DNA of 64,000 bases from Bryobacterales bacterium (GTDB taxonomy: Bacteria > Acidobacteriota > Terriglobia > Bryobacterales > UBA6623). The notes under the pieces are model-generated. The model had not been told where the DNA came from and searched no databases. It saw nothing but the letters and a program-made list of their open reading frames with translations. Of this stretch, positions 8,008 to 41,675 are shown one piece after another (the stretch's first letter is position 1; each line of letters begins with the position of its first letter). The stretch is taken from positions 96,001 to 160,000 of the forward strand of contig OY729427.2 of assembly GCA_963422375.2 (NCBI GenBank). The letters run 5' to 3'. The translations under genes were made by a program, and so were the position numbers.

Positions 8008-10362
8008 CTGCCTTTTACCCATCAGTCTTGGTTGAGGGCAGATCTTGGTACAAGTTGCTGGCTTGGTCCAGGTCGATCAGCCGCTCGTACCTCTGCGTGG
8101 CCGTAGCGAGTCGCGTGTAGCCCTCCCGGAGAACCTCGTGCCCGGGCGGGGGGATCGTGCTTGCGGTTGAGACAGCTGCCGAGCATCGCCGTGGTGAGCA
8201 CCGCGCGATCTAGGTTGTCGGGCGCCGGCACCTGGCGAGCCTTGGCGAAGTCGCCCGGCGCCCACAGCTCGGCGTCGGAGAACAGATCGCTTGGCGGCAG
8301 TTCGGGCGTGTCCCGGCCCGGCAGCGTCATCACGGTCAGGCGCCAGGCGATCACCGCCTTGATCGTGACCGCCCGCTCGATCCGCTCGCCGCGGCGATGG
8401 CCGAGGTGTTCCGCCCGGCAGCCGGACTTGAGCACCCGGTACCAGTCCTCGATGCGCCAGCGCAGGCGATACCAGGCGAGGATGCGCTCCGCGTCCGCCC
8501 GCGTCCGCACCGGCACGCTCGTCAGCAGGAACCATTCCAGCGGCTCGGCGCCGTCCGGGGCCGCGTCTTCCCGCACGTGCACCATGTTCAGGCGAATCGG
8601 CTCGCTCCCGCGCTCGGGTCCCGCTGCCGGCGCCGGCAGCGGGACCGTCTGCCAGCGCAGCGCCACCTCGGCCGCGCGCGCCGGGCGCAACTCGCTCGGC
8701 GCACAGCTCGAACACGTCCGCCTCGCGGTCCATGACCGCGACCGGCCGGGTCCCCCGCAGCTGCCCGGCCAGCTCGGCCGTGTCCCGCAGCCCGCGCACC
8801 CAGCACTGCGTCTCGCGCAGCTCGGCCGGCTGGTGCTTCCCGGCCCGGCCGTCGGGGGCCTCGAACTGGATCAGCGGCACGCCCGGCGGGATGCCGTCGC
8901 CGTTGACGGCCGGCGTCGAGTGCATGTGCAGGCCGAGGGTGCCCTTGGAACGGCTGTTCCTGCCGATCAGCCCCGGGCCGACGCAGCCCGGACACTCGGC
9001 GAAATTGAGGTCGCTGCCGTCCTGGATGCACAGCACGACGGCTTGGCCGTCCATGCGCTCCAGCGTGCGCGCACGGTGGGGGGCGAGAATGCTGGCGGGC
9101 GTGACGGCGGCCTCGGCCGGCTGGTCGATCATGCGGTAGCAGGCTTTCATCAGGGCGCGGTCGGACCGGGCTGCGGAGACGAACGAGGCCCGCGGCGCGT
9201 CGGCCATGGCGGCCGCGCATTGCACCAGGCGGCGGCTCCAGCGTACATCTCCCAGCGGAGCGCCGCCGAACTCGCGCGGGGGCGGCGGGGGCGCGGGCAC
9301 GCCCGGCTGGCGGCGCCAGTCGTGCCGCAGGGGATACAGGAAGACGGCCTTGACGGGCACGGTCGCGCCGGTCGGGGCGCAGCGCCCGCGGCCGGCGGTG
9401 CGGCCGACGTGAATCCAGTTGGCGGCCTTGAAGCTGGTGCCGGCATGGTGCCGGCGGTCGACGAAGGTCTCCGCGAGCAGGGGCTCGTAGCCGTAGCGCT
9501 GCTGGAAGTCGGCGGGGAGGCGGCGCAGGCCCGGGGCGAGGGCCTTGGAGGCGAGGTTGCGGCACTGCGCGCCGGGCCGGATCAGGAAGCGGCTGAGGGC
9601 GATCACGCGATGCAGCCGGTTGCGGCGGCGCTCGGCGTCCCAGCCGATCCAGCGGTCGCGGTCGGCGAGAGCCAGGGCGGAGGCGGCGAAGCCGAGGGCG
9701 CCGAGGATGCCGTGCCGCGAGAGCGGCAGGTAGCGCAGCTGGGGGCCGACGTGGCAGGCGGCGCCGCGGGGATGCTCGCGGGCGATCAGCTCGGTCCGGA
9801 GCCGGCGGCTGCGGTCGTCGGCGACGAGTTCGAGGCGCAGGTCCTCGACGGCGCCGGCGCGGGCCGGCACGGACCGCGGGGCCCCGACGGGGTGGCCGAG
9901 CCGTCGCGGGCGGCCGTGCCCGCCGTGGCGGACGGGCGGCGGGAGAGCGATGCTGTCGCGGGCGTGGAGGGTCCGCAAAACCTTCAGGCAGGTGACCAGC
10001 TGGGGGTTTCGTCGTGGAAGCGGAAGTCGGCGCACACGTGCGCGGCGAGCGCGGTGCGGTGGGGGAAGGTCTCCGCGTCCAGCAGCGCTCGCAGGCGCAG
10101 GAGACCTCCGGGCCCGACAGCGTTTCGAGAATGCGGTTCCGGGGCATGACCCATAGAAGGCAGCTCGGCGTAGAAGGCAGCTCGGCGGCAGATTGTCGAG
10201 GGCTCCGTGGGAAAAAGATTGAGCGGCTGCGACCGTCCCGCTGCCGGGGTCTCGCCGACTGCGCGGACTGGCCCTGCCGTCTGCCTATCCGAAGGCCCCA
10301 CTCCGCGACTCCCTGTGCCCGGGGCTTCCGTTAGTCCAGGCCCACTTATGGGGCATGGGCAG
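8008..10362 (-). mobile_element. Decayed IS4-family (Tn5-like) element encoding a DUF4338-fused transposase, frameshifted
   Basis: DUF4338-like part: RDRWIGW...RFLIRP...NLASK..YGYEPLLAETFVD..GTSFKAANW..G.TAGRGR. IS4 motifs: EFGGAPLGD.R, IQDGSDLNF, DREAD, WFLLTS, YRLRWRIEDW.RVLKSGC. Imperfect TIRs CTGCCTTTTACCCATCAGT (8008) and CTGCCCATGCCCCATAAGT (reverse complement, ending 10362). Confidence 0.8.
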
Positions 10363-10491
10363 CCCACGCCTGACCCCGGCCCGGCGTTTGCTCCGAAGGT
10401 ATTAGGGTGATCCAGAGACACCTCCCCAGCTCCACTTCGGCGATGTGTTGTTTCGATAGCCGGCTGGCGGGCCTAACGGCAAGCACCCGTT

Positions 10492-10960
10492 CGGGGCGCC
10501 GTTCGCACGGGCTTGCGCTGCGCTAGCATCGAGGTGACGGAGGGCCCCGGGCCAGCTCCGCCGCGGGCAATGGCCGGACGATCGATGGCTACCCCTCCCC
10601 CCCCCCGGCAGCGGGACGGACCCGCTTCGGCCAGCCTAGGCTGCACGCGGAATACCCGCCGAAGCAATGTATTCTTCTCCACGCGCCGCGTTCGCCAGCG
10701 TTTCGCCCCGCGCACTATCTGGACCCAGCGAGCCAGGTTCTTCCCGTCCGCGCATCCGCGTCCATTCCGGAATCGCGACAGGGCTCGCCGCACCGCAGGA
10801 GCGCGAACGCAATGCGCAGGATCTCGCGCCTCAGCGCCGCCTCCGCATGGCACATGCCGCGCCTCACGGTCACGGCGCGCCCAGGCATGCCGCCCCGTAG
10901 CGGTCTCGCACACGATGGGCCGCGCAGACGCGTTGCCCTTGCGGCATCGGCCAGCAGCGG
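10492..10960 (-). pseudogene. Heavily degraded IS110-family fragment, paralogue of 7463-8007
   Basis: RKGNA.., EILRIAFALLRCGEPCRD and KNLARWVQIVR appear across shifted frames. Shares the distal motif CGGGGCGCCGTTCGC.CGGGCTT with the first fragment. Confidence 0.65.
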
Positions 10961-11427
10961 CCATTGCCGACCAACTCGTGATTGCCCGGGCACACAGCAA
11001 TCTTGGTTTGGCTCGCCCTGACACCCGATCGCTTCCTCGGCATGGAGTCGCGACCCGGAAAACTCAAGATTGTGGGATGGTTCGCGCTCACCCGTCATCA
11101 CTTCCGAATCTTGCAGTCGCGATACGAGAAACTCGCAGGGGCCGTGCCCGACCGAGACGGCTCGGTCCCCGCGGACTACTGGAACGGAACTACTGCAGGA
11201 AGAAATGGCTGGGCCAGACCAGGCGGGATGCCTGCGGAGCCGCGGCACTCTCAGCGCCGATCCCGGAAGGAAACTAATTGATCAGTTCAGGCAAGCGTCG
11301 GCGCGGGCGTCCCCAAGCGGATCTGCACCGCAGGACGGCGCGCCCCTTGCTGCCCGGCAGGAACAACGAAACTGGAATCGTCGTGCGAGCCCGGTCGCGG
11401 GCCGCGGCACAGTGGAAGAACCCCCTC

Positions 11428-12400
11428 ATGGCAGCGAAGAGCAAGATCGCCCGGAAGCAGACGTGGAAAGAGCTGGCGGTGATCGGAATCGACATCGGCA
11501 AGTGCAGCGTGCATCTGGTCAGCATGGACCGGCACGGCATGCCGCTGGTCAAGGCGAAGCGCACGAAGCAGAGGGTCGCGGAGGTGCTGGGCGCACTGCA
11601 GCCCTGCGTGATCGACATGGAGGCCTGCAGCGGGGCGCACTACCTGGGGCGGCTGCAGCGGGAGCTCCGTCGCGAGGTGCGGCTGATGCCGCCGAAGTAC
11701 GTCAAGCCGTACGTCAAGCGGGACAAGACGGACTTCGACGACCCGGAGGCCAGCCAGCGCCCGACGATGCGCTCGGTGCCGCTGAAGTCGGAAGAGCAGC
11801 TGACGATGCAGTCGCTGCACCGGCTGCGCTCGCGGCTGGCGCGCGCGTCGGCCCGATCAGCCAGATCCGCGGCGTCCTGCCAGAGCGGGAAATCGCGGTG
11901 TCGCAGGGCACGACCAAGCTGGCCGCGGCCCTGCCGGGCATCCTCGAGGATGTCGGCGACGGTCATTCGGACCGTATGCGCGCGATGGTCGCCAGCAGGG
12001 TCGTCGAGTGGGAGGAGCTGGACCGGCGCGAGGCGGAGCTCAACGGTGAGGTGGCGCGGGAGTGCAAGGGGAACGAGGCCTGCCGCAGGCTGGACGAGAT
12101 CGCGGGCATCGGCCCGCTGATCGCGACCGCGCCGGTGGGGGCAGCCGGCGACGGGGCGGCCTTCGAGCGGGCCCGGGACTTCACGGCTTGGTTGGGGCTG
12201 ACGCCCCGCGAGGACGCGACCGGCGGCAAGCGGCGCCTGGGCCGTCCCCAGCAAGGGTGAGCGCTTCCGCTCGGCTCCGGAGATCGCCGCCCGGGGGCGC
12301 CCGACGGCTGCCCGGCGCTCCGCGCCGGCGGTCGCGAGCGGCGGCCGGACAAGCCGGCCGCCGCGGAGCACCCGCGAGACGGGGCGCGAGCCCCGCATTT
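11428..12400 (+). pseudogene. IS110-family (IS1111-type) recombinase, frameshifted
   Basis: VIGIDIGK, MEACSGAHY, VRLMPPKYVKPYVKRDKTD, RPTMRSVPLKS.EQ, IAGIGPLIATA, AWLGLTPRE..TGGK.RLG. Several frameshifts and deletions. Confidence 0.9.
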
Positions 12401-12424
12401 CGCCCGCACATGCGAATCGAAGGA

Positions 12425-12565
12425 CCAACGGTCGCACCGTCGTTGCGGGACCCTGCCTGTTTGGATGGCCCTCGGAGGTCAGCGGCATTATCGGAAGTGT
12501 GAAGCGCGGAACACATCGTGGCCCGGGACCGGCAAGGCTCTGGGAGGTCGGATCTATTCGCGCGG
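12425..12565 (+). ncRNA. Putative seekRNA/bridge-RNA-encoding non-coding end of the IS1111-type element
   Basis: Downstream of the recombinase. The block order CGGTC.CACCG..., CCTG, GGCCCTCGGAGGTC, GCGCGGAACACATC.TGGCC, GAGGTCGGATCTAT resembles IS1111 right-end non-coding regions as I recall them. Not model-verified. Confidence 0.45.
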
Positions 12566-13009
12566 TTCCGTTCCGTCCGGAAAGACGCTGGCGCAGGTAC
12601 CAGACGGCGAACCAAATGTCCGAACATCGGCCGTTTTAGGTTGTCCAAGAGGCTCGCACCGCAGCCGACCGGGACGGTGTGGCCGGGGCGACGAGCTGGC
12701 CGCAGGGACACGCAGACGGCCTTGGGGCGAGCAGCCGCGGACGCATGGATCGGGGCCTTGGCGCCGGCACATTCGAGTGGGAGACCGGTGTCGCCGGTGA
12801 CTGCGCCTAGCACGTCGACCAGCCGACGGGGACGGGTGCCGGGAGCGGCGCGGTCTACGCCGGGGAGGGCCGTCGGCGGCCGCGACTGCGGACGCTCTCC
12901 GCGAAATCCGCCGCGGTCGGTAACGGCTAGCTTGGGATCCGGTCGGCGACCGTGGCCGGGTCCGGGCGCCGGGGAAGCCCGCGCTCCCAAAGCGGCGGCC
13001 GCGTTACGC

Positions 13010-13275
13010 CCCTGCCGGGCGCGGTTGAGGTCCTCAGTCAGCGGCCCGTACACCTCGTCGCGGGCCCGCGTGGATTGGCGCAGCAGGCTGACGGTGAGGG
13101 TGCCCGCGGCCGGGTCCTAGCGCAGGTCGGACTCGCTGCAGAACAACGCCTGCACCGGCTCGCGGGCCGTCTGGGGCTTGGCCGGCTCGGGCGCGACTAC
13201 GGCCGCCTCGGGCCGGAAGGCCGCCATGCGCACAGTCGCGAGGAGGTGGTGGCGCAGCGGTTCGGGCAGGGTCAT
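13010..13275 (-). pseudogene. C-terminal fragment of a putative transposase
   Basis: LPEPLRHHLLATVRMAAFRPE...QTAREPVQALFCSESDLR*DPAAGTLTVSLLRQSTRARD...LTEDLN, with an internal stop. Resembles the C-termini of a widespread 'putative transposase' family. Confidence 0.5.
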
Positions 13276-13342
13276 CACCTAGTCCTCCGGGTTCGGCTCG
13301 CCCGCCAAGATCTGCTGCCGACACTGGCTCATGCCCCATGCC

Positions 13343-15938
13343 CAGCAGTTCTAGATTTGGCCATAAAGGTGGTGGATGAACGTTGTTTCGGAGGATGAGG
13401 TGAACAAGTTGACCGAGAGGTCGCGCTTCGAAGGCCGCCCCGCGGGAGTGTCGGACGGCTGGCAGGGCTGTGTCGCGATCCCGCGACGGGTCCGCCTGGT
13501 GCCAGGCCCGCGGGCGGACGCACTCCGGCGGTAGCCTGCTGCCGCAGCCGGCCGCTCGCCGGACGCTGCCGAGGCGAAGCTGCGCGGAGGCTAGGCCCCG
13601 GCCGACTGGCAGCGCGGCGGCGCGCGTCCGTCGCGCACCGCCGCCAGCAGAGCCCGCCAGTCCGGGAAGCGGTATCAGCGCAGCGCGACCCTCAGCTCCT
13701 TGAACAAGTCGCGGCGCGTGACCCGCTTGCACCGGCACTGCCGCCACAGCGCGCAGACGCACTGCAGCACCGCATGGAGCACGAAGGCGAACAGGCTCAG
13801 CACAACCGTCACGTTGGCCGGCGCGGCCTTGCCGTGCCCGAAGTTGCAGCCGTGCCGCGCCAAGCAGTTGAAGCCCTCGTTCTCGATCTTCCAGCGCGCC
13901 CAGCCGACCCGCGCGATCCGCTCCGCGTTGTCCGTGGTGACCGCGAGACTGGTGAAGAACCAGTTGGCGTAGGTACGCTTGCCGCCGCGCTCCGCGGCGT
14001 ACTCGATCCAAGTGCTCGGCCGGGTCCGGGCCGCGGCAGCCAGCCGGTCGATTGCACTGCGCCGCGCGCCTGCCGATTCTCTGGCACCTCGTACGAGTCC
14101 TTGTGGGATCCGGGCTTGCATACCCGGACCTGATTACCAACGAACGTCAGCCGAGGATATGCTATACTGAAGGAGGTCGGAAATCTCTGACAGGAAAGGG
14201 GCTAGCAGCTGAAACGCAATCGCGTGCAATGCCAGAAGGGACTCAGCCCGGGCAAGTTCCTGCAGCGCTACGGCAGCGAGGGGCAATGCGAGCAGGCCGT
14301 TTTCAACGCCCGCCGGCCGGACGGCTTCCGCTGCCCGGAGTGCGGCTCCCGGCGGCACTGCCGCATCCGCTCCCGCAAGCTCCGGCAGTGCCATGCCTGC
14401 CACCGCCGGACCTCCCTCGTCGCCGGCACGATCTTCGCCGCCAGCAAGCTGCCGCTGACCGTCCGGTTCCTGGCGCTCCACCTGCTGACGCAGGGCAAGC
14501 ACGGCGTTTCGTCGCTGGAACTGGCGCGTCAGCCGGGCGTCAGCCGGAATACCGCCTGGAAGGTGAAGCACAAGCTCCTGCCAGTGCTGAAGGAGCGCGA
14601 CGAGCGCGTGCCGCCGGGCGGCATCGTGCAGGTGGACGATGCCTACTGGGGCCTGCTGGGGCGGGGAGCGGAGCGGCGGCAAGAGCGCGGTCGCGGCGCG
14701 GCGGGCAAGACGCCGTTCGTGGCCGCCGTGCAGGTCACCGCCGCCGGCCAGCCGGCAAGGATGCGCATGAGCAGCGTGGCCAGCGTGGCGGGCTTCCGCA
14801 AGAAGACGCTGGCAGCGTGGGCCGGGCGGCACTTGCAGCCCGGCACGAAGGTGCATTCCGACGGCCCGGCCTGCTTCCGGGGCGTCGCCGACGCCGGCTG
14901 CGAGCACGTGCCGACCGTCACCGGAGGCGGGCAGCGGAGCTGCGGGGATTCCCGCTTCGTCCGGGTCAACACGATGCCGGGGAACGTCAAGCAGTCCCTG
15001 GCGGGAACCTGCCATGCGCTCGACGGCAAGCACCTGCCGCGGTACCTCGCCGAGTTCCGCTACCGCTTCAACCGCCGCTACGATCTGGAGGTGCTGGTCC
15101 CCCGCCTGCTCCACGCCTCCGTGCGCACCCCGCCCATGCCTTACCGCCTCCTAACCTTGGCTGAGTCTTGTGGGTAATCAGGTACCCGGATGTAGTCCAC
15201 ATGCCAGCGGCCTCGCAGACCGGCTGGCAACAGTACAGGTCGTCGCCCGGCAGGACGGGGCGGTAGGCCTGCAGCCAGGCGCCGTGAGCGGCGATCCAGC
15301 GCTTGGCGGCGTTGCGCTCGCAGTCCTGCTTGCGCTCGTCCTCGCTCATGTCGGCGCGGGTCGCGGCCGCGTCCTGCTGCGGGCGCACGAACTCGGGCAT
15401 CAGCGGCAGGACGGTGGCGTGGCCGTCGGCCACCGCGGTGGCCGCGACCATGGTGTGGAAGTGATGCGGCCGGCGCTCGTCGAGGCGCTGGAAGGGCTCG
15501 AGCGCGCCCTGCGCGGCCACGGTTTCGAGGCACAGCCGGAACGGCGGGTCGAACGCGGCCGGGTCGAGGCCGTCGAGCAAGTTGCGGATCCGGTGGGCGC
15601 AGGGGATGCGGCCCACGCCGAACAGGGTCCGGCAGTTGGAGCGGGAGCCGTCCCGCTCCATGCTCCGCTGGAATTCGAGGAACGACTCGCACTGGGTGAA
15701 GAAGCAGGCCAGGGCGCAACCGGCGGCGTCGCTGACCAAGTAGCGCGTGTTGCGACCCGTGCGCCGGTCGGGCAGGCCGGCGGCCGTCTCGCGGATGGCG
15801 CTCGGCAGCGCGTCCAAGACATGCGACATACATCCCAACTCGCAGATTGCGCGTCAAGCACCTGCCTGCGCCAGCCTGCCTTCGACACCCTTCTGAGACT
15901 CTCTGGAAATCCCAGAATGCCCAAATTGAGAATCGCTG
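13343..15938 (-). mobile_element. Decayed ISNCY-type element, interrupted by IS1595 copy 1
   Basis: N-half 15190-15838: LPDRRTGRNTRY..SDAA..A..FFTQ..SFLEFQR...SNCRTLFGV. C-half 13675-14120: ARWKIENEGFNCL...NFGHG. Imperfect TIRs CAGCAGTTCTAGATTTGGCCAT / CAGCGATTCTCAATTTGGGCAT (17/22). Confidence 0.75.
14129..15182 (+). mobile_element. IS1595-family element, copy 1 (start codon mutated to CTG)
   Basis: TIRs CCTGATTACC.../...GGTAATCAGG. Exact 8-bp TSD TACCCGGA at 14121-14128 and 15183-15190. Zinc ribbon plus VDDAY, SDG and YLAEF.YRFNRR. Confidence 0.95.
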
Positions 15939-15980
15939 AGTTTCGACAAGGGCGTTCACAGACCGGCGAACCTGACGCGC

Positions 15981-16483: not shown

Positions 16484-16493
16484 TCTAGGACCC

Positions 16494-20807: not shown

Positions 20808-22213
20808 GGGAATTATATATCTGAGTGCCGACGACGCCATATCCGGCTAGAACTGCTCTGCTTGGGGACGTCGGCGTCTAGCTCGGATCTTTCGTGTGCG
20901 GCCGAGGTGGGCACCGAAAGGTCGGTTCGTATCTGAATTGCGCCTGCAAGCGGATCTCGCGACGGACGGACTGGAGAGGCTCCCCTTCCAAGGCGGCTGC
21001 ATCTATGAATCGTCCGGGCCGGACACCGGTCGCGGCGCGGGATTCCGGATCCGGAGGGCCCTTCGCACCGAGCGTGAAGACAGGCCGCAGCGGACCGGCC
21101 AGGCCGTGCTCGGGCCGCGACCGCGGCCTTGCCGACCAGCTGCCAGTAGGTCAGCGTCCGGCCGACCGGGCCCCGCGCCATGCGCCGCATCCGTTCCGCG
21201 GTGTCGCAGTTGCGGGCGTTGCACCGTCCCGCGAACTCCGTGAGGTAGCGGCCCGAATGTTGGACGCTCATCCGATGATAGGTTCCGTAGAGGCCGCGCT
21301 TGAACAGGGACCGGAACGACTCGATGCCGTTCGCATGCGCTGTCCCGCGCACGTACTCGCCGCCGGAGTGCCTGACGGCTTCGTGCGGGAACTCTTCCAT
21401 GCCGGCGCAGGCCGCCGCCTCGTCGGAGCGGACCTGCGCGCCCGGCGCGACCCGGCCGCGCACGAAGCCCTGCAGGTCGCCCTCGGTCGTGCCCGGCAGC
21501 GGCCGGGCGGCCACTTCGTTCGTGGCGCGGTCCCGCGCGCCCGCCACGGGGGTCTTGCCGACGGGCCCGCGCCCGGCGCGGGCCTTCTTGCTCTCGTGCT
21601 TGTTGCGCTCCTTGCCGCCGACGTACGTCTCGTCCACTTCCACCGGGCCGACGAACAGGTCCCGGTCCCGCTCCCGGCACGCGCGGATGCGGTGCGCCAG
21701 GTGCCGGGCCGACTTCCGGCTGATGCCCGGGTCGCGGTGCAGCTTCATGCTGGAGACGCCCTTGATGCCGGTGGCCAGCAGGAACAGGGCGATGGCCCGG
21801 ACGCGGTAGCCGAGCTTGGTGTCGGCCATCACGCTGCCGGTGCGCACGGAAAAGCGCTTGCCGCAACCGCGGCAACGGTACGGCATCGAAGGGTGGGCCG
21901 CGCCGGACTGCACGCTGGAGCCGCGGCAGCGGGGGCATGCCGGACCGTCCGGCCAGCGCATGGAGGCGAACCACTCTTCCGCGGATTCGTCATCGGGGAA
22001 CATGGCGATCACTTCGATCAAGGTGATGCCTTTACGAAATCAATTCCCGGGACATTTCTGCTTCGACTGCTTCAACTATGACCTCCTATATTGAAACTAT
22101 TCTATCAAGAATATCCACAGACTGTCAACAGATATACGGAAGAAATATCAAATTGATTTATGGATTGATAATTTGCCAAATCGGTTGCCTAGGCACTCAG
22201 ATATATAATTCCC
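20808..22213 (-). mobile_element. IS1595-family element (different subgroup from copies 1-3) with a decayed transposase
   Basis: Perfect 22-bp TIRs GGGAATTATATATCTGAGTGCC (20808-20829; reverse complement at 22192-22213). Flanks CTTCTATT/ATTCTATA are an imperfect TSD. Motifs EVDETYVGG, SDE, NGIESF. In-frame stop near the N-terminus. Confidence 0.9.
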
Positions 22214-22214
22214 A

Positions 22215-24329: not shown

Positions 24330-24916
24330 TCTATTCCTTTCGTCGTCGGAATCTTTGTCTTGCACGGTAGGATGCCGCGAGAGCACGAGAGGTCTGATGC
24401 CTTGCGGGGCCTCGTACCGGAGAGCGTGTCGTCGCGAGTGCGACACGCGCTACCGTTCCACTCCACCTCTAATGTTCTCGTCGTGGTTCCCGTTGCCAAC
24501 GATGGGATGATGGTCCTTTCCGGGAATGCTTCTTGGCGAACGCACCGACCGTTCGGATGGCGGGCGGCGATATTGGTCCGATCGCTTTGATCCGTTGAGT
24601 GATGGCAAACTATTCTATTTTGGTTGGCGCGGCCTTTTCGCGGGCGTCAGTCCCAAGCGTGGATCAACGGCCGCTCCCGGAGACGGGTTTGCACTTGATA
24701 GGGCGGGAGAACCTTGCCCCGGGCACGGATATCACCGTTATCGAAGTTCACGAACAGGTCCGCAACAACAGCGCAGGGAGGCGATGACGGAGTCGGGCTG
24801 CATGGCGGAGCAGCACGCGGAGTGCCACCTCGGGCGCACCCAGCTCCCTCGTCGGCCCGAGGCGTAGACTTGGGAGTCGCTAGTCGTCAAACTGGAAGGA
24901 GCGAAACAGGAGGAGG

Positions 24917-26806: not shown

Positions 26807-26865
26807 CCCCGCACCCGCGAACAGCGTACAGTGCCCATGCTGGAAGCTGGGGCGAGCGACAGACC

Positions 26866-29541: not shown

Positions 29542-29545
29542 ACCT

Positions 29546-30991: not shown

Positions 30992-31054
30992 GAGCGAGTT
31001 GATCGAGGCCGTTCCCGGCCGGGCGGCTTCGTTCCCTGCTCCGGAGGATCAGAG

Positions 31055-31912: not shown

Positions 31913-32918
31913 GACCGGCCGGGCCCACCGTCGCAGCGGCGTACCGCTCGAACCAGCGCTCCAATTCGGAGGGGCCTGCCCAGCCGTCGTGAATCAGCAC
32001 GCGATACCGGAGCGAGAGCCTCCCGTTTCGAGGCAGCGTGTAGCCGCCGTCGACCACCCGATTCCCGGTGAAGTCGGACAAGCCGAACGGATTCGCGGAG
32101 CACAGGCTGTAGCCGCGGGCGTGCCAGCGCGTGGGGTGGCGCAGGTTCGACGGGTGATCCAGGATCGCAACGCCAGCCCGCCGGCCATCGACTACGGCCG
32201 CGTAGTCCACCCATCGCGCCTCGCGGCCCCAGATGCTCTCGGTGCCGCGCCCGCCTGCCGAATTCGTCAGCGCGGCTCCTCGGTCCTGGCGGAACTCGTC
32301 TGCCAGCCGCATCGCGAAGCCACCGTCCTCGGTGTCCCCGAAACGCAGGTCGGCCCCTTGGTCGGCGCGAAACTCGATCAGCGCGTCGATCCAAGTCAAG
32401 CCGCCCGCGCTCGCGAATGCGAAGCACTGCGCCGCGGTACCGACCAAGTCGCCCTCGGAAGACCGAAACCCGAGCTCCGCCGAGATCTGGCCGGGCTCGA
32501 CTTCTGGCTCGGCCAAGAGGACGATCGTGCCGGTCCGGTCGCGGCCGAGCTCCCGCCAGAAGTCGTGGCCGCTGACGTCGCCGTGCCCGTACCAGATGCC
32601 GCGGTGCCACGCGTGATCCGCCTCCTCCCCCTCCCGCGGCTCCAGCGGGTAGCCTCGCGAAACCGTCAGTCCGGCAGGCGTTCGCAGGGGATGCAGGAAC
32701 GGCTTGTCCCATTGCTCCCCGTAATGGAATGTCGTGACGTGCCGGCCGCCGAGGAACACGCGGACCCGGCCTTCGCCCCGCTCGAACGAGACGGCCCGCG
32801 ACTCGCTCTCCCCATGCGGGGTCACGTCATCGGGCGGCCCGGCATCGCCGCCGCAGGCGGCACCCGCGACGGCCAGAACGGCCGCCAAGAGTCCGGTTCG
32901 TTCGCGAGCAGCTCGCAT
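31896..32918 (-). CDS. DUF6807/'PmoA-family' lipoprotein of unknown function
   Basis: Lipobox AAC. KPFLHPLRTP.G..VSRGYP, DHAWHRGIW, FGDTEDGGF..R, DHPSN..HPT.WHARGY...ANPFG. Confidence 0.8.
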   Translation of the reverse strand: MRAARERTGLLAAVLAVAGAACGGDAGPPDDVTPHGESESRAVSFERGEGRVRVFLGGRHVTTFHYGEQWDKPFLHPLRTPAGLTVSRGYPLEPREGEEADHAWHRGIWYGHGDVSGHDFWRELGRDRTGTIVLLAEPEVEPGQISAELGFRSSEGDLVGTAAQCFAFASAGGLTWIDALIEFRADQGADLRFGDTEDGGFAMRLADEFRQDRGAALTNSAGGRGTESIWGREARWVDYAAVVDGRRAGVAILDHPSNLRHPTRWHARGYSLCSANPFGLSDFTGNRVVDGGYTLPRNGRLSLRYRVLIHDGWAGPSELERWFERYAAATVGPAGLSRTP

Positions 32919-33028
32919 CGCCGCAGCCGATCGCCATGATCCCACGAAACGCCTCGAGGGCGCCCGGCGAGCGCGAGTTCGCCCGCGGGGCCTTGCGGCG
33001 CGGGTTGCGAGGGGCGGACAATCAGGGC

Positions 33029-33982
33029 ATGTCGCAGCTGCGCTCGTTCCGCGGAATCCTCCCGGCCATGCAGGTGCCGTTCAGAGATGACATGAGCGTC
33101 GACGATGTCGAGCTCGCTCGCTTCGCGCGCTGGCTCGCCGGCCACGAGGGCATCGGCGGCCTCGTGACCAACGGCCACACCGGCGAGGTCTACGCGCTCA
33201 GCCCCGAAGAAAGGGCGCACGTCACGCGGGTCGTGGCCGAGGCCGTCGAAGGCCGCGTTCCGGTCATTTCCGGCATCTGCTGCGAATCGCTCGGGGAGGC
33301 CGCGGAGCACTCCGAGATGGCGAAGGATGCCGGCGCCACCGGACTCCTAGTGATGCCGCCGCACTACTGGCTGCGGTTCGGCATGCGGCCGGAGCACGTG
33401 CTCGATCACTTCAAGGCCGTTTCCGACGCAGTCGACCTGAGCCTGATCGTGCACGTGTACCCCGCGTGGACCAAGGCTCGCTACCCTTCGCAGCTGCTTG
33501 CCGAACTGGCGCGGTCCCCCAACGTGACAACTTTCAAGGTCGGCACGCGGGAGATGTCGAAGTACGAGCGCGACATCCGCGCAATCCGCGCGGCCAACCC
33601 GCAGTGCGCCGTACTCACCTGCCACGACGAGTACGTGCTGGCCTCGATGGTGCAGGGAGTCGACGGCGCCCTCGTGGGCTTCGCGTCGTTCATTCCCGAA
33701 CTGCTGGTCGAGCTCTACGATGCGGTCCGTGCGGGCGACCTGCATCGCGCGGGACGCGTTCACGAACCGATCACGGTCCTCAAGGAAGCAGTCTATGCCG
33801 ACGAAGAGCCCTCGGGCGACGCCCACGCCCGCATGAAGGCCGCCATGGTCGTGGCGGGCCGACTGAAGTCTTGCGTGACGCGGCCCCCCACCCGACCGCC
33901 ATCCCCGGAACGGATGGAAGCGATTCGTGTCGCCGTGCAGGCCGCCGGACTGCTGCGGCAGCGCGAGCCTGTCGCAGCGTAG
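33029..33982 (+). CDS. Dihydrodipicolinate synthase-family aldolase/lyase (not DapA-like)
   Basis: GILPA..VPF, NGHTGE, LLVMPP, Schiff-base Lys in FKVG, GVDGALVG. Confidence 0.9.
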   Translation: MSQLRSFRGILPAMQVPFRDDMSVDDVELARFARWLAGHEGIGGLVTNGHTGEVYALSPEERAHVTRVVAEAVEGRVPVISGICCESLGEAAEHSEMAKDAGATGLLVMPPHYWLRFGMRPEHVLDHFKAVSDAVDLSLIVHVYPAWTKARYPSQLLAELARSPNVTTFKVGTREMSKYERDIRAIRAANPQCAVLTCHDEYVLASMVQGVDGALVGFASFIPELLVELYDAVRAGDLHRAGRVHEPITVLKEAVYADEEPSGDAHARMKAAMVVAGRLKSCVTRPPTRPPSPERMEAIRVAVQAAGLLRQREPVAA

Positions 33983-34007
33983 CGTACCCTAGTTGGCGCG
34001 TGACGCG

Positions 34008-35006
34008 ATGAGGATGAGGCGCAGGCAGTTCCTTGCGCTCGCAGGCACGCACGTCGGCCTGCTCGGAGGCTGCAGCGCGCCGGAAGGCGAGCGCATCAGC
34101 ATCGGTGCCATGCCGCCGGGGACGTCGTGGTACGTATTCGCCGCAACGCTGGCGCAACTGCTCCGCGACGCCGTCCCGGCCGGGACCAGCATCGAGGTAG
34201 TCGCGCGAGGCGGGGGGATCGGCAATCCGATCCTCGTGGACCGGGGCGAGGAGACCATCGCGATCGCCCAAGCGGCGACCGCGGCATGGGCCTACGCCGG
34301 CAATGCGATCGCCTACGACCACAGGCACGGTAACTTGCGGGCGCTGGCCGGAGGCCTGAACAGGGTCTGGATGGCCGCCCTGATGACCGAGGACTACATC
34401 GAGCGCACGGGCCACGAAACCCTCAAGGAAGCCCTCCAGTCCGGTACGCCGCCGCGAATCGTCATGAAGCCGCGCGGCAGCACAGTGCCCGTGGTGGCGG
34501 ACCTCCTGTTCGAAACCCTCGGCACCAGCCGCGAGAGAATCCAGGCCGACGGCGGGGACATCATCCAAGTGAGCGCCAACCAAGTGTCCGCGATTTTCCG
34601 GAACGGCCAGGCCGACCTCTATCTCGAGACGGCGATCCGCTCGCATCCGACCGTCACCGAAGTCTCGACCACGACCTCCGTCCGCTTCCTGGACTACCCG
34701 GAGGAGACGATCACGAAACTGGTGGGACCCGGCATCGAGCGCACTCCGATGCCCGCCTGGTTCCGCGGCCAGAGCGGCCCGCTCGACTCGGTGGACATGG
34801 GCACCGTGCTGATCATCCACAAGGACGCGCCGCGCGATCTCGCGCACCTGATCACGAAAGCAGTGTGCGAGGGACGCGAAGCGATGGCGGAAGCGCACAG
34901 CGCCTGGGAGGACTTCAGGCCCCAGCAGGCGGCGCGCCTCGAAAAGACCGGAGTCCCGCTGCATCCGGGGGCGGAAGACTACTACCTCCGGCAAGGATGG
35001 ATCTAA
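34008..35006 (+). CDS. TAXI-family TRAP transporter solute-binding subunit
   Basis: Tat/lipoprotein signal RRRQFL..GGC, G..GTSWY, GGGIGN, PLHPGAEDYY. Confidence 0.9.
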   Translation: MRMRRRQFLALAGTHVGLLGGCSAPEGERISIGAMPPGTSWYVFAATLAQLLRDAVPAGTSIEVVARGGGIGNPILVDRGEETIAIAQAATAAWAYAGNAIAYDHRHGNLRALAGGLNRVWMAALMTEDYIERTGHETLKEALQSGTPPRIVMKPRGSTVPVVADLLFETLGTSRERIQADGGDIIQVSANQVSAIFRNGQADLYLETAIRSHPTVTEVSTTTSVRFLDYPEETITKLVGPGIERTPMPAWFRGQSGPLDSVDMGTVLIIHKDAPRDLAHLITKAVCEGREAMAEAHSAWEDFRPQQAARLEKTGVPLHPGAEDYYLRQGWI

Positions 35007-35051
35007 CCCGGAAGGCCGTCCGGCTGGCGATCCTCTTCCCGTCCGACCACG

Positions 35052-36917
35052 ATGGCAGCGCGACTCCTGCCCGCCGTCAGGATCGGACTAGGGTCGTTCT
35101 GGATCGCCTTCCAAGCCTACATCCTCTTCCACCCGCAAGCACCCCTCGTGGAGCGTCCGCTGCATCTCGCGCTCGCCACCACGATTCTGTTCCTGCGCGA
35201 GCCCAGTCCCGGCTCCGAGCGGGGCAAGGCCCGGATGCTGGCGGACGCGGCCCTAGCGTTGGTCTCGGCGGGCTGCGGGGCGTACTACCTGCTCTCGTCG
35301 GATCGCTTGACGGGGCGAATGGAGGGGGTCGATGCCGTCCTGCCGGTCGACGTAGTCTTCGGACTGCTGGCGGTCACCGTCCTGATCGAAGGCGCGCGGC
35401 GCGCGGCCGGATGGCCGCTCCTAGCGGTGGTGACGGCGTTCCTCTTGTACGGATTCGCCGGCGAGTGGATGCCCGGTTGGCTGCGCTTCTCGGGCTTCGG
35501 ACTCGAGGACTCGATCGAAATCCTCACGCTGTCGCTGAACGGCATCCTCGGCATCACGACCGGCACGTCGGTGCAGTTCGTGTTCTATTTCATTCTGTTC
35601 GGGGCGCTCTACAGCGCAGTCGGCGGGGGGCGGCTGATCATTGACTTGGGCATGCGCCTGACCGGATCGCAAACCGGCGGCCCGGCCAAGGCTGCCGTGG
35701 TCTCGAGCAGCCTGATGGGCAGCGTCACGGGAAGCGCCGTGGCCAACGTCGCGGGTACCGGCGTGTTCACGATTCCGCTGATGCGGCGCGCCGGGTATAC
35801 CGCCAACGAGGCAGGCTCGCTGGAAGCGATCGCGTCCACGGGCGGCCAGCTGATGCCGCCCGTGATGGGCGTGGCGGCATTCGTCATGGCCGAAATGCTC
35901 GGAATCGACTACGGGCAGGTGGCGATGGCCGGCGCGATACCCGCCCTCGCGTTCTACGCGGCACTCTTGATTTCCGTGGATCTCCGGGCGCGCAAGACGG
36001 GAGTCGGAGCGGCACCCGGCTACTCGCGGGCTGCGCAGGAGCCCATCGCGCCTCGCCTGCACCTGCTAGCCCCGCCTCTCATGCTTGTCGGTGCTCTAGC
36101 GACGGGCTACTCCGCGACCTACGCGGCCGGGATCGCCAGTCTCGCCTGCGTCGCTCTCGGGCTTGCCGGAAGGGACGACCGCCCGCTACGGCGCAGGTTC
36201 ACAGAATTCGTCGAAGACTCGACTCGCCAAGCTAGCCAAGTGGCTGTTCCCATCGCGGCGATCGGCATCATCGTCGCGGTCGCGATCCAATCCAATCTCG
36301 CACTGAAGTTCAGCTCGGAGCTCATCGGCGGGAGCGGCTCGCCGCTCGGCGCTATGGGCTTGATCGTGCTGGGCTGCATCGTCATGGGGATGGGCCTCCC
36401 CACGGTCGCCGCCTACCTCATCGGCGCCATCCTGTTCGTGCCGGCCCTGAAGGAGCTCGGGATCGCGGAACTGCCCGCGCACTTCTTCGTCATGTACTAC
36501 TGCGTACTGTCCATGGTGACGCCGCCGGTGGCTCTGGCGTCCTTCGCAGCCGCCGGGATCTCGGGAGGCAGCGCGATGCGAACAAGCGTCCAGGCGTTTC
36601 GCGCCGCGCTGGTGTGCTTTCTCATTCCGGTCTCGTTCGCGTTCGAGCCGCGGCTGCTCGGGCAGGGAGAGCTGCTCCCCACGGCTGCAGCGGGCCTGGC
36701 CCTGCTGGCAGGCACAGCCGGGTGGGCGGTGGCGTTGGTCGGATACTTCCTGCATCCACTGCGGGGCGTCGAGCGCGTGGCTGTCGGCACGGCATCCGCC
36801 ATCGTGATCTGCTTTCCGACCGGGACGATGGCTTGGACGTGGGCGATCACCGGGTTGGTGCTTTTCGCAGCATGGACGCTGGTGACGCGCAGGATGCCGA
36901 CGGCCGGAGGATCTTGA
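35052..36917 (+). CDS. TRAP transporter fused 4TM/12TM permease
   Basis: GGPAKAAVVSSSLMGSVTGSAVANV..TG.FTIPLM, ASTGGQLMPPVMG, GMGLPT.AAY, TPPVALASFAAAGI. Confidence 0.95.
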   Translation: MAARLLPAVRIGLGSFWIAFQAYILFHPQAPLVERPLHLALATTILFLREPSPGSERGKARMLADAALALVSAGCGAYYLLSSDRLTGRMEGVDAVLPVDVVFGLLAVTVLIEGARRAAGWPLLAVVTAFLLYGFAGEWMPGWLRFSGFGLEDSIEILTLSLNGILGITTGTSVQFVFYFILFGALYSAVGGGRLIIDLGMRLTGSQTGGPAKAAVVSSSLMGSVTGSAVANVAGTGVFTIPLMRRAGYTANEAGSLEAIASTGGQLMPPVMGVAAFVMAEMLGIDYGQVAMAGAIPALAFYAALLISVDLRARKTGVGAAPGYSRAAQEPIAPRLHLLAPPLMLVGALATGYSATYAAGIASLACVALGLAGRDDRPLRRRFTEFVEDSTRQASQVAVPIAAIGIIVAVAIQSNLALKFSSELIGGSGSPLGAMGLIVLGCIVMGMGLPTVAAYLIGAILFVPALKELGIAELPAHFFVMYYCVLSMVTPPVALASFAAAGISGGSAMRTSVQAFRAALVCFLIPVSFAFEPRLLGQGELLPTAAAGLALLAGTAGWAVALVGYFLHPLRGVERVAVGTASAIVICFPTGTMAWTWAITGLVLFAAWTLVTRRMPTAGGS

Positions 36918-37419
36918 GTCCCGGCGCGGCACGCGAGAGCTCCCGAGCCCTCGACCATGCGATCGAGTACTCCCTCCGACGGGGCAGCATTCAGTACCCT
37001 GCAGCTAGCTCGTCCGGCTTCTGGCTGGAACTCGCGTCTTCCAACCGCACCGGATCTCCTCGCGCAGTCGGCCCGATCCCTCTCGGCGGCCATTGGCCGA
37101 CCTATTCTAGAGTGTCGCGATTGAAGTCGTAGAGTGCAACCGCATTGAAAAGCTCACGGTGACGTACAGTGGGAATGACGCCGAATGGGACGCACGATGC
37201 CCGAGGATCTGGCTTGGATCCAGTTCAGGCCCGTAGCATCACGCGGCAGTTCGATTTGCCTATCTGTCGGGCAAACGAGATATCCCTCAATCCCGACCAT
37301 TGATCACGGCCCGGCCCTCAGCCGACAGACCGGCGCAACTGCCGGTCAGAATACAATGAGGAATCGCAACTTTGGATCAGACGAAATTGCCGCACGATGT
37401 CGCTTGCTTTCCCACAGGA

Positions 37420-37664
37420 TTCTTGAGGATGAACTTCTCGCTTGTAAACCTGATTCCGAGTTGAGTTCAGCGCTCATGGGTCTTGACGATACTTGTACAG
37501 ATGATGTGAGTGTTGAGGAATTGAAAGACTATCTTAGCAAGAAAAAGAACAAGACTACCTATGCGGCAAGGCTGGCTAGGGCTCTGGCCGCCAACAAGAT
37601 CCGCGGAGACCGTATTCTTAAACCATTCAGGGACGCAATCGTATACTTGGGAGAAGCAGCATGA
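37420..37664 (+). pseudogene. C-terminal remnant of a probable OLD/TOPRIM nuclease (GajA-like)
   Basis: ILEDELL...DYLSKKKNKTTYAARLA...KPFRDAIVYL. ATGA overlap with the UvrD gene; lower GC. Assignment rests mainly on context. Confidence 0.4.
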
Positions 37665-39364
37665 CTGGTCTTGACCTTAACCAGTCCCTAGCCACTCTTA
37701 CTGATGTTCAACGTCGTGCGGTCGAGTGGGACACCGGGGCCTTGCTTGTACTGGCGGGTCCGCGATCTGGGAAGACTCAGGTACTAGCATGTCGAATCGC
37801 AAGGCTGCTGGATGCGTCACGAGACAGTCACTTTCGAATTCTAGGTTTGACCTTCACCAACAAGGCAGCTGATGAAATGAAGGTTCGTGTCCGAAATCTT
37901 GTCCCTGGACTACAACGACGGGCCAACATAGCTACGTTTCATGGATTCTGCGCTCAGGTTCTCCGTCAACATGGTGCCCACATCGGCATTCGCTCGGACT
38001 TTACAATATATGCCCTGGAGGCTGATCGCAGAGCCGTATTGAAAGATGCATTGCAACGTGCCGAATCACAAGGAGTGCCCGCATCTTCTGATGACATGTG
38101 GTATTTGACACTCATTGATCGTGTCAAATCCAAGCTAGTGTTCCCTGATGATGTCACTTCAGCCATGACTCACTTCCATGACGTCCAAAAGGTCAAGCTG
38201 GTCTATAGACTCTATGAGGAGGAACTTCGTCCACTTAATGCACTTGACTTTAGTTCCCTACTACTCGAAGCATACAGATTGATCCAAACATATCCAGCCT
38301 TCTCAAGGAGATATCTCCGGGTATACCCCTACTGGATGGTTGACGAGTTTCAAGATACAAGTAGACCGCAATATCACTTCTTGAAAGCAATGTCAGGCGA
38401 TCAGTTCAATGACATCTTCGTTGTTGCGGACGATGACCAGATTATTCTTCGGTGGAACGGGGCAAGCTATGAAACTATCGTGGATTTCGTTGATCACTTC
38501 AAGGCAGAGGTGATTCAGGTTTCCTCCAATTACAGGTGTCCCCCATCGATCATCGGTGCTGCAAACACGCTTGTCGCACACAACACTCAGCGGACAGTTG
38601 GAAAGCAACGGATCAAGCCTGTTAGAATTGAACATGCAACCCCAGCCTCACGGATCCGTGTAAGAGTTTTCGAGACCGACAAAAAGAAGCGGATGGAGTT
38701 GCGACCGAGATTGCTACGATGGGTGCTGGACACTGGGGCAGAATTGCTGTTTTGGGTAGAATGCGTGCTCTCTTGGATCGATTGCACCATGCTTTGAACG
38801 AGCAGGACGTCCCAAGCCACCTCGCTCAGCGACGCAATGAATTCCTGTCTCCTGAGATCCGCTGGTTTAGCTCGTCACTCCCCCAAGTGAACCGGCCTAT
38901 GGACCTGCGTAATTTGCGTAACCTAGTCGAATCGTTCAACGACTTCGGCCGACTCGCGATCAACCTAGATGATGTTGTGTCAGAGTCCAGTCTAACCGGA
39001 AAGAGTTTTTTAAGTCGTGGCTCAGCATTGTAAGTAATAGGGTTGCAGGGAAGCCCATCAGTACGATTCCCATCAGTACGATTCTTGATCACATGGATCG
39101 CCTTGCGATGGATCAGTCCAATTCGCTGCAATTGGCGAAAGATGTCATCGAGCTATTCTCCTCACATACTAGAGAACGAGGAGATGACCCGGACTTTAAT
39201 GAAGACATTCGTCTGTGGCGTCAACTCTTTGGCGATCTACGCTCTCATTATGGTGTCGCGGTGCGCCTGAGTGAGATTGTCCACGAGGTCCAACTCCGCT
39301 CAAAGGCACCTGATCCTCCCAAGGACGTGGTAACGCTGATGACGATTCATGCGGCAAAGGGAAA

Positions 39365-40397
39365 CCTGATTACCAACGAACGTCAGCCGAGGATATGCTA
39401 TACTGGAGGAGGTCGGAAATCTCTGACAGGAAAGGGGCTAGCAGATGAAACGCAATCGCGTGCAATTCCAGAAGGGACTCAGCGCGGGCAAGTTCCTGCA
39501 GCGCTACGGCAGCGAGGGGCCATGCGAGCAGGCCGTCTGCAACGCCCGCTGGCCGGACGGCTTCCGCTGCCCGGAGTGCGGCTCCCGACGGCACTGCCGC
39601 ATCCGCTCCCGCAAGCTCCGGCAGTGCCATGCCTGCCACCGCCGGACCTCCCTCGTCGCCGGCACGATCTTCGCCGCCAGCAAGCTGCCGCTGACCGTCC
39701 GGTTGCTGGCGCTCCACCTGCTGACGCAGGGCCAGCACGGCGTTTCGTCGCTGGAACTGGCGCGGCAGCTGGGGGTCAGCCGGAACACGGCTTGGAAGAT
39801 GAAGCACAAGCTCTTGCAAGTGATGAAGGAGCGCGACGAGCGCCTGCCGCCGGGCGGCATCGTGCAGGTGGACGACGCCTACCGGGGCGGGGAGCGGACC
39901 GGCGGCAAGCGCGGTCGCGGCGCGGCGGGCAAGACGCCGTTCGTGGCCGCCGTGCAGGTCAGCGCCGCCGGCCAGCCGGCAAGGATGCGCCTGAGCAGCG
40001 TGGCGGGCTTCCGCAAGAAGACGCTGGCAGCGTGGGCCGGGCGGCACTTGCAGCCCGGCACGGAGGTGCATTCCGACGGCTTGGCCTGCTTCCGGGGCGT
40101 GGCCGGCGCCGGCTGCGAGCACGTGCCGACCGTCACCGGAGGCGGGAAGCGGAGCTGCGCGGATTCCCGCTTCGTCCGGGTCAACACGATGCTGGGGAAC
40201 GTCAAGCAGTCCCTGGCGGGAACCTGCCATTCGTTCGACGGCAAGCACCTGCCGCGCTACCTCGCCGAGTTCCGCTACCGCTTCAACCGCCGCTACGATC
40301 TCGAGGCGCTGGTCCCCCGCCTGCTCCACGCCTCCGTGCGCACCCCGCCCATGCCTTACCGCCTCCTAACCTTGGCTGAGTCTTGTGGGTAATCAGG
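39365..40397 (+). mobile_element. IS1595-family element, copy 2 (transposase ORF 39445-40392)
   Basis: Same TIRs as copy 1; open 315-aa ORF. Confidence 0.95.
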
Positions 40398-40630
40398 AAA
40401 GCCTTTTCCCAAGATACGGGCCATACTCAGTCGACTTCCTATTCAGGCTGCCATCATAGCAGCCCAGAGATAGAGTCTTGAATTCTAAAACTTAGGCCTG
40501 CATATTGTGATATACCGTAACTATCTACACAGTATATTGCGTACTTAAATTTGGAAGGCCTCCTTCTTAGCAGACTGCTTGGGAACTCAGTTGCCAGTAC
40601 ATTCTGGCCTGGCCGATCCGAAAAGACTTT

Positions 40631-41675
40631 CCTGATTACCAACGAACGTCAGCCGAGGATATGCTATACTGAAGGAGGTCGGAAACCTCTGACAGGAAAG
40701 GGGATAGCTGATGAAACGCAATCGCGTGCAATTCCAGAAGGGACTCAGCCTGGGCAAGTTCCTGCAGCGCTACGGCAGCGAGGGGCAATGCGAGCAGGCC
40801 GTCTTCAACGCCCGCTGGACGGACGGCTTCCGCTGCCCGGAGTGCGGCTCCCGCCGGCACTGCCGCATCCGCTCCCGCAAGCTCCGGCAGTGCCATGCCT
40901 GCCACCGCCAGAGCTCCCTCGTCGCCGGCACGATCTTCGCCGCCACCCAGCTGCCGCTGACCGTCTGGTTGCTGGCGATCCACCTGCTGACGCAGGGTAA
41001 GCACGGCGTTTCGTCGCTGGAACTGGCGCGGCAGCCGGGCGTGAGCCGGAACACGGCTTGGAAGGTGAAGCACAAGCTCCTGCAAGTGATGAAGGCGCGC
41101 GACGAGCGCGTGCCGCTGCACGGCATCGTGCAGGTGGACGATGCCTACTGGGGCGGGGAGCGGACCGGCGGCCAGCGCGGTCGCGGCGCGGCGGGCAGGA
41201 CGCCGTTCGTCGCCGCCGTGCAGGTCACCGCCGCCGGCCAGCCGGCAAGGATGCGCATGAGCAGCGTGGCGAGCTTGCGCAAGAAGACGCTGGCAGCGTG
41301 GGCCGGGCGGCACTTGCAGCCCGGCACGGAGGTGCATTCCGACGGCCCGGCCTGCTTGCGGGGCGTGGCCGGCGCCGGCTGCGAGCACGTGCCGACCGTC
41401 ACCGGAGGCGGGCAGCGGAGCTGCGGGGATTCCCGCTTCGTCCGGGTCAACGTCCGGGTCAGAACGATGCTGGCGCACGTCAAGCAATCCCTAGCGGGAA
41501 CCTGCCATGCGCTCGACGGCAAGCACCTGCCGCGGTACCTCGCCGAGTTCTGCTACCGCTTCAACCGCCGCTACCACCTGGAGGCGCTGGTCCCCCGCCT
41601 GCTCCACGCCTCCGTGCGCACCCCGCCCAGGCCTTACCGTCTCCTAACCTTGGCTGAGTCTTGTGGGTAATCAGG
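40631..41675 (+). mobile_element. IS1595-family element, copy 3 (transposase ORF 40711-41670)
   Basis: Same TIRs; open 319-aa ORF with a 12-bp internal duplication. Confidence 0.95.

Follow-up and report, generated by a model that had tools for sequence, protein, structure and literature searches.

Why do dead copies of one insertion sequence (IS) differ from each other, at site after site, by the same four letters? The question is raised by a 64,000-nucleotide stretch of a Bryobacterales genome (G000:C1:96001-160000, hereafter the window), in which three broken copies of an IS1595 element carry CTGG or CCAG in one copy and CCGG in another. The genome to which the window belongs, G000, comprises 6.0 Mb in 3 contigs with 67% GC; 14 of its repeat families have at least 5 copies, and repeats with at least 10 copies make up ~0.53 Mb. 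The IS1595 family of the window, termed F01, is represented by 87 near-full copies in the genome with a median pairwise distance of ~4%, and not one of the 87 is intact. A sequence-only reading of the window had proposed that one CCGG-directed activity is inactivating these elements, in the manner of a bacterial analogue of repeat-induced point mutation (RIP). The erosion is real: dead IS families have been eroded one way, from A/T to G/C, in a context-weighted manner. As to its cause, the explanation that we favour, with a confidence only slightly above even, is that dead IS copies undergo GC-biased gene conversion in short patches and that an orphan Vsr resolves T:G mismatches at CTGG; mixtures of mechanisms are likely. 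The idea of a single CCGG-directed activity does not hold, since T>C in other contexts, T>G and C>G are spreading too. The wording "is inactivating" is unproven: all copies are broken by now, and what happened first is unreadable.

The CTGG>CCGG changes themselves stand as first described. All seven IS1595 pairs named initially contrast a CTGG or CCAG with a CCGG at the coordinates stated, and each of the 13 peptide motifs named as odd was found with the odd codon within a CCGG, GPG being too short for a unique placement. The direction was polarised with outgroups at sites of IS4 and of both IS1595 types, a and b. With 14 outgroup transposases, CTGG/CCAG is ancestral and CCGG derived at 13 F01 sites (L>P, W>R, Q>R), where the carriers of the derived allele range from 9 to 85 of 87 copies; among F01 sites with at least 3 carriers, CCGG was ancestral at none by outgroup polarity. 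In the second IS1595 family of the window, F02, W96R, L119P, W127R and W258R are likewise derived. A like-for-like comparison was made in four families between conserved Leu codons CTG before G or Trp codons TGG after C and the same codons elsewhere. In families of more than 5 copies, CTGG>CCGG was found at 608/1350 codons versus 9/1071 in the control; as copies are not independent, the same test was counted by site (12/16 versus 1/12, p=0.0006). The excess recurs in families of 2-5 copies (21/68 versus 0/57) and in single-copy remnants, defined as having no sister at 85% identity or above (14/52 versus 3/58, p=0.003). A rate at CTGG no higher than in other contexts had been named beforehand as the outcome that would speak against the proposal, and the rate at CTGG is clearly higher. 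Across 9 families, CTGG is also the hottest four-base context for T>C, with 42/110 sites hot versus 51/323 for CTG followed by A, C or T. Unpolarised context counts hide this effect (0.052 for CTGG versus 0.050 for CTGA, with nothing visible), since in many cases it is the derived allele that is in the majority. Two other candidates were rejected: CCNGG/CCSGG as the true motif was ruled out by C[T]CGG being cold (2/34), with C[T]AGG and C[T]TGG looking warm (2/7 and 9/26), and hairpin or palindrome templating was discarded as the main cause, the creation of an inverted or direct repeat having raised the hot fraction only 1.2-2.5-fold over a type-matched, unpolarised expectation.

CTGG is only one part of a wider drive. 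The CTGG/CCGG flips account for 5-7 of the 41-57 substitutions among the three IS1595 copies of the window, and for 1101/12215 (~9%) of the derived A/T>G/C alleles in 9 families, the latter under a rule that takes A/T as ancestral if present in at least 6% of copies. This rule inflates A/T>G/C counts, and the main claims therefore use outgroup-polarised counts; under the rule, an F01 copy carries ~38 A/T>G/C changes, 2.8 G/C>A/T and 7.6 others, and each has at least 21 of the first kind. T>C prefers a following GG and, in second place, any following purine; T>G prefers a preceding T or a following C, and C>G a preceding T. The clearest sign of directionality is the frequency spectrum at outgroup-conserved residues of the two large families. 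A/T>G/C alleles comprise 35 singletons, 21 doubletons, 13 at 3-9% of copies and 28 at 10% or above, whereas for G/C>A/T the corresponding counts are 53, 9, 2 and 0 (p=1e-9). In these two families under strict outgroup polarity, alleles at or above 10% of copies were reached by T>C in 18/198 possible cases, by T>G in 10/212 and by C>G in 8/366, and by C>T, C>A and T>A in none (0/274, 0/363 and 0/212), though C>T has the most singletons. The singleton input per site is near equal (62/314 for A/T>G/C versus 135/713 for G/C>A/T); A/T>G/C alleles reach higher frequencies despite a similar input. Among frequent coding variants, 58/78 are non-synonymous, many at outgroup-invariant residues, which indicates that the drive is independent of protein function. 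T>C damage is 0.105 and C>T damage 0.0026 in the families with more than 5 copies, versus 0.074 and 0.028 in single copies; taking C>T as a clock, T>C is amplified ~15-fold and T>G ~3-fold in large families. The ratio to this clock climbs with copy number, a trend confounded by age, and single-copy remnants also show the CTGG change. For comparison, 57 homologous IS copies in an unrelated genome contain only 22 variant alleles in all, and in G042 the 12 IS4 copies are 98.6-99.5% identical, with minor alleles that show no skew to G/C.

The copies also appear to exchange sequence. The conflicting sharing of alleles described in the window was confirmed, and exchange between copies is supported, indirectly, by linkage that is low and falls with distance. 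In F01, the four-gamete test fails across the 87 copies for 95% of site pairs with a spacing above 20 bp. There r2 is 0.051 at 8-20 bp, 0.029 at 21-60 bp and only 0.019 past 250 bp, so that linkage is lost over 20-60 bp. Of 8 families, 6 show a significant decay (permutation p at most 0.011), and the co-sharing of rare variants declines with distance in F02, F05 and F07 and weakly in F01. For instance, two neighbouring copies have 4 rare variants in common over 313 bp, and identical tandem duplications of 9-14 bp occur in one exact form in up to 10 copies, and in more with variant forms, on unlinked backgrounds. The genomic distance between copies has little effect on their similarity. A simulated 88-copy pool, which was fitted roughly by hand over 10 settings at 4 runs per setting and is not an estimate, approximately gives the observed loads and the lack of frequent G/C>A/T alleles under biased conversion, and fails without conversion or without bias.

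It is from the direction, the context, the frequency skew, the distance-dependent linkage, the concentration in repeats and the presence of the genes described below that we infer a role for heteroduplexes and for particular enzymes. A T/C difference between two copies gives a T:G or C:A mismatch in a heteroduplex, and an A/C difference gives A:G or C:T; loss of the T of T:G, or of the A of A:G or A:C, leads to G:C. Under the favoured explanation, dead dispersed IS copies would exchange short patches by non-allelic gene conversion, and the mismatch in the heteroduplex of donor and recipient would be repaired more often to a G:C pair. A new A/T>G/C allele arising in one copy would then spread through the family, and new G/C>A/T alleles would stay rare. 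The bias would depend on context and be strongest for T:G in CTGG/CCGG, as expected of nick-and-patch repair by Vsr, and T>G (A>C) may stem from MutY-type removal of A from A:G. Patches would be tens of bases long, and neighbouring sites would be unlinked because the patches are so short.

The genome holds candidates for these roles. The expectation that a Vsr is encoded was borne out by one intact orphan vsr gene, which scores 154 bits against the TIGR00632 cut-off of 97.85 and whose catalytic motifs GRPD, HGCFWH and ERD line up with those of E. coli Vsr (1cw0). The gene is conserved genus-wide, in 29/30 relatives and with ~65-83% identity in most; such conservation is unusual in a gene whose normal companion is a methyltransferase. 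The expectation of a CCGG-specific methyltransferase was disappointed: none was identified, the 3.2-kb vsr locus contains no methyltransferase and no PF00145 match lies near vsr, and the 18 C5 methyltransferase matches in G000 include broken ones. In line with this, CCGG has no elevated C>T (24/132 sites, lower than most contexts; 0/24, 0/46 and 1/570 in the CCGG rows of the C>T tally, the only rows used, as those beyond include conservative family-fixed differences). A ~30-kb element with two C5 methyltransferase genes was also observed. Its three copies are 98.9-100% identical, and contig ends divide two of them; it is either an integrative element that arrived recently or a break point of the assembly. 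Open frames were further found for mutS, mutL, two genes of the uracil-glycosylase family and a MutY-like gene. The Neisseria Vsr V.NgoAXIV cuts a T:G substrate at CTGG/CCGG in vitro (PMC6116569), MutY removes A from G:A (PMC12606429), and orphan vsr genes are known, e.g., VsrA of Caulobacter (PMC12907096). Action of the orphan Vsr and of MutY on IS heteroduplexes in this bacterium would be consistent with these activities, and for the C>G drive the genome offered no candidate enzyme.

Several results weigh against biased conversion between copies, or at least against its simplest form. First, the CTGG>CCGG changes of the single-copy remnants, in which radical A/T>G/C and G/C>A/T changes stand at 38:20, occur where no sister exists today; at least some remnants clearly had sisters, as two share L721P and a stop, and the changes would need lost sisters or an extra mutational hot spot. 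Second, L>P shows a 4-fold excess before G among intact single-copy genes (10/1007 versus 7/2818, p=0.005, 582 orthologs), as either a faint genome-wide trace or cryptic pseudogenes. Third, vsr is present genus-wide, yet the broken IS copies of the relatives show no clear CTGG effect (3/341 versus 2/251). The MutY-like gene scores 282, below the TIGR01084 cut-off of 286.5, and no linkage decay was found in F05 and F08. The simulation overshoots A/T>G/C alleles of middle frequency (56-82 versus ~24 at 3-8 copies), gives too few frequent C>G alleles and leaves short-range linkage weaker than seen; the true bias must therefore be more site-selective. Finally, large families have 11-fold less C>T than single copies, which may reflect their youth and not purging, since T>A, which a GC bias should spare, is also ~20-fold lower (0.0009 versus 0.018, small counts). 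The C>G drive is left unexplained by biased conversion altogether.

We consider it unlikely, though deserving of attention, that the changes arise by de novo mutagenesis associated with repeats, in which the errors of strand invasion or repair synthesis would be fixed to G:C by Vsr and MutY, again and again in different copies and without a donor. This explanation is the closest in spirit to RIP and would accommodate the single-copy remnants, as well as the singleton CCGG already present at 4/9 of the still-cold CTGG/CCAG sites of F01. It would also fit two degraded copies in G015 in which W>R lies on CCGG while their sisters retain W, and the density of perfect tandem duplications of 10-14 bp, which is 23 per 100 kb in high-copy repeats versus 2.6 in unique non-coding DNA, a figure inflated by shared events. 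However, local context is a poor predictor of hot sites: a context model reaches an AUC of 0.63-0.72, and sites with the same 7- or 9-base context agree in hotness at 0.16-0.21 versus a base rate of 0.126. Because sites of identical context rarely agree, context does not set the hot spots by itself. Moreover, linkage decay and shared tracts mark copying, and the singleton input is unskewed to G/C.

A genome-wide, GC-leaning mutation spectrum with a Vsr-type hot spot at CTGG, visible only where selection has lapsed and with repeats playing no causal part, is to our mind improbable. In its favour, the L>P enrichment before G in intact genes is found in this lineage only, GC at 4-fold sites is 0.86-0.87 in G000 versus 0.81 and 0.74 in two relatives, 24 broken loci flagged among the relatives' 88 IS loci lean 21:8 toward G/C, and 6 multi-hit host pseudogenes lean 7:1 in the same direction. 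On the other side, T/(T+C) at C_GG stands at 0.333 in unique coding DNA and at 0.223 in repeats with at least 10 copies, and 1.3 Mb of unique non-coding DNA shows no depletion of CTGG and behaves as in relatives. At 4-fold sites, the share of T before GG and GA is 0.078/0.069 in G000, 0.144/0.137 in G005 and 0.228/0.198 in G004, which gives GG/GA ratios of 1.13, 1.05 and 1.15 and no CTGG-specific loss; by our estimate, with relatives as the starting state, a 27% loss as in the single-copy remnants would lower this ratio to ~0.8. Q>R is not enriched at CCAG in 582 intact orthologs (58/869 versus 57/1053), and 46 disrupted single-copy genes, drawn from 2.0 Mb of G005 and G004 sequence, show radical changes at 22:24, as intact genes do, although most have one lesion, look young and thus test little. 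The frequency skew and the linkage decay are also unexplained by such a spectrum. The reshaping of tetranucleotide content that had been anticipated is absent genome-wide (CTGG observed/expected 1.05-1.08). A strong concentration in repeats is therefore supported by the comparisons with unique DNA and 4-fold sites, and of the stricter proposal that only repeats are targeted, the sparing of most unique coding and non-coding DNA stands, and the change is also present in single-copy remnants and faintly in genes. As a separate observation, 4-fold sites show a broader CTG>CCG trend in genes that extends beyond CTGG: compared with G005, G000 has half as much T at NCT codons if any G follows, and 0.7-1.3-fold as much if A, C or T follows.

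It is very improbable that the alleles were inherited from damaged master copies amplified in trans: a few near-identical pairs (98.7-99.7%) and changes that are almost fixed (85/87) would suit this scenario, which is largely refuted by the lack of tree-like linkage in the four-gamete test and by the fact that inheritance gives no direction. Slightly less credit still is due to an error of sequencing or polishing at methylated sites that went uncorrected where DNA is repeated. Repeats are indeed where the effect is concentrated, and the platform of the assembly is not on record, but the variant letters of copies 2 and 3 are seen in contigs of three public runs, X3, X5 and X1 (the last from 2015 and a different study), which cover three samples and two studies. 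These contigs, from runs of unrecorded platform and with one sample possibly being the source of the assembly, confirm among others the variants at 39467 (T>G) and 40011 (C>G) and the CCGG at 39619, for which X3 holds both alleles. The independent data that show the variants are contigs; the raw Illumina run X7 contains no reads on the stretch. In addition, a duplicated segment of 21.5 kb with 381 CTGG/CCAG and 382 CCGG words (763) has no flip between its copies. At window positions 24000-39389, X3 and X5, which are different samples, are identical over 15,390 unique bases and share the same IS insertion point, and the 2015 run X1 differs by a few letters at low depth; the sampled population is nearly clonal. 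The opposite direction, deamination of 5-methylcytosine turning CCGG into CTGG, to which the 18 C5 methyltransferase matches might point, is refuted by the polarity of all 13 F01 sites and by the unraised C>T at CCGG, and deserves hardly any credence.

How does biased conversion between dead IS copies relate to known systems? RIP in fungi produces C>T changes via a methyltransferase-like protein and is not known to involve copying between repeats. The erosion described here resembles RIP in that one-way changes destructive to transposases accumulate in repeats and not in unique DNA, but it fails the defining tests of RIP: the changes run toward G/C and not as C:G>T:A transitions, transversions are included, and alleles move between copies, as indicated by the linkage decay and the shared duplications, though some de novo change may contribute. 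As to confinement to repeats, the changes are strongly concentrated in IS repeats and are also found in single-copy remnants and faintly in genes. The suggested RIP analogue is not supported as such.

The related known processes are GC-biased gene conversion (gBGC), very-short-patch repair and conversion among dead IS copies. In the accessible text of Lassalle et al. (2015, PMC4450053), gBGC as proposed for bacteria shares with the present case a recombination-linked bias to G/C that can fix harmful alleles and a direction-skewed spectrum; that proposal relies on comparing GC content with between-strain recombination and points to mismatch repair. Here, in contrast, the exchange would take place between dispersed paralogous IS copies of one genome, in dead DNA, in patches of tens of bases, with a CTGG context and with C>G as well. 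Vsr repair, as known in part from E. coli Vsr, V.NgoAXIV and Caulobacter VsrA, has in common the T:G>C:G outcome, the CTGG/CCGG substrate and an intact vsr, and differs in that there is here no linked methyltransferase, no genome-wide tetranucleotide signature, a concentration in repeats and a drive that lies mostly outside CTGG. Finally, gene conversion among non-functional IS copies has been described in the Wolbachia strain wBm (Cordaux 2009, cited in PMC3205602), where, too, all copies of the examined families are dead and exchange sequence. The accessible text reports no directional or context bias there, whereas in G000 conversion appears to spread damage and not only to homogenise copies. 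A literature search that left most subscription journals uncovered returned no paper on directional conversion among bacterial IS copies.

Why recombination should favour G/C in bacteria is "actively debated" according to a 2026 paper (PMC13548323). The usual gene-based evidence is confounded by selection, whereas ~0.53 Mb of dead repeats with at least 10 copies provides polarised frequencies, patch lengths and context without selection on proteins. If biased conversion is indeed the cause, dead IS copies would give a rare direct view of gBGC in bacteria, and they point to named enzymes that can be tested in vitro. One practical consequence is that the majority consensus of such families is damaged and not ancestral. 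More tentatively, the process might act as a ratchet that depends on copy number, in which orphan Vsr and MutY, working on copy-copy heteroduplexes, drive damaging G/C alleles through a whole family, masters included, until it is extinct; such a ratchet, a speculative notion at this stage, would be a functional counterpart of RIP operating via biased conversion and with no dedicated gene. If the drive also destroys active masters, it would be a way for genomes to end IS expansions.

Table 1. Coordinates of the elements and genes discussed (window positions unless a contig or locus is named).
Feature	Position	Strand	Remarks
IS1595 (ISXO2-like) copy 1, dead	14129..15182	+	Pfam PF12762/PF12760; short tandem duplications present
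IS1595 copy 1, derived CCGG alleles	14249, 14314, 14383, 14408, 14464, 14534, 14546, 14615, 14867, 14962, 14978		
IS1595 copy 2, dead, indel-free	39365..40397	+	Pfam; NF033547; variant alleles in contigs of X1, X3, X5
IS1595 copy 2, derived CCGG alleles	39485, 39619, 39644, 39700, 39782, 39851, 39883, 40177		
IS1595 copy 3, dead	40631..41675	+	Pfam; 12-bp duplication
IS1595 copy 3, derived CCGG alleles	40885, 41036, 41048, 41348, 41455		
Second IS1595 family member, F02, 69 copies	20808..22213	-	Pfam; W>R, L>P on CCGG at 21799, 21730, 21706, 21313
IS4-family element, 3-5 copies, frameshifted	7994..10368	-	Ends approximate (BLAST); NF033590 below cut-off; W>R, L>P on CCGG, e.g., 9798, 8913, 8886, 8321 (versus intact relatives)
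IS110 remnant	11076..12709	+	PF02371; no copy at 85% identity or above; ATAPVG on CCGG at 12132; ends approximate
ISNCY-like families F03/F04, downstream fragments, ~40 copies	12619..14128	-	BLAST copies; ends approximate; family name as given in the sequence-only reading
ISNCY-like element, upstream part, adjoins IS1595 copy 1	15183..15940	-	VLPGDD on CCGG, motif start 15256; ends approximate
Orphan vsr	L009:1285-1722 = G000:C2:2578401-2578835		
~30-kb element, pieces	G000:C1:1-21509, C1:1832394-1844793, C2:1307817-1341367, C3:1-19793, C3:479729-494719		

Some further observations concern the elements of Table 1 and their surroundings. Perfect tandem duplications of 9-14 bp are ~9 times as dense in high-copy repeats as in unique non-coding DNA. 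In those of F01 (e.g., in copies 1 and 3 of the window), a hot site frequently distinguishes one unit from the other; these duplications could be transposon footprints or the result of slippage during conversion. The frames of relatives that match the IS4-like element are ~780 aa long, far longer than the 405-position IS4 profile, and dozens of identical intact copies of this element exist in relatives. The N-terminal frame of a UvrD-type helicase (37661-38797) stops just before the two tandem IS1595 copies (37661-41675 in all), and is possibly a disrupted gene. At 53020-58967, an AlbA_2/HATPase gene and a gene for an Eco57I-type restriction-modification protein of 1155 aa are located near a ParA-like gene.

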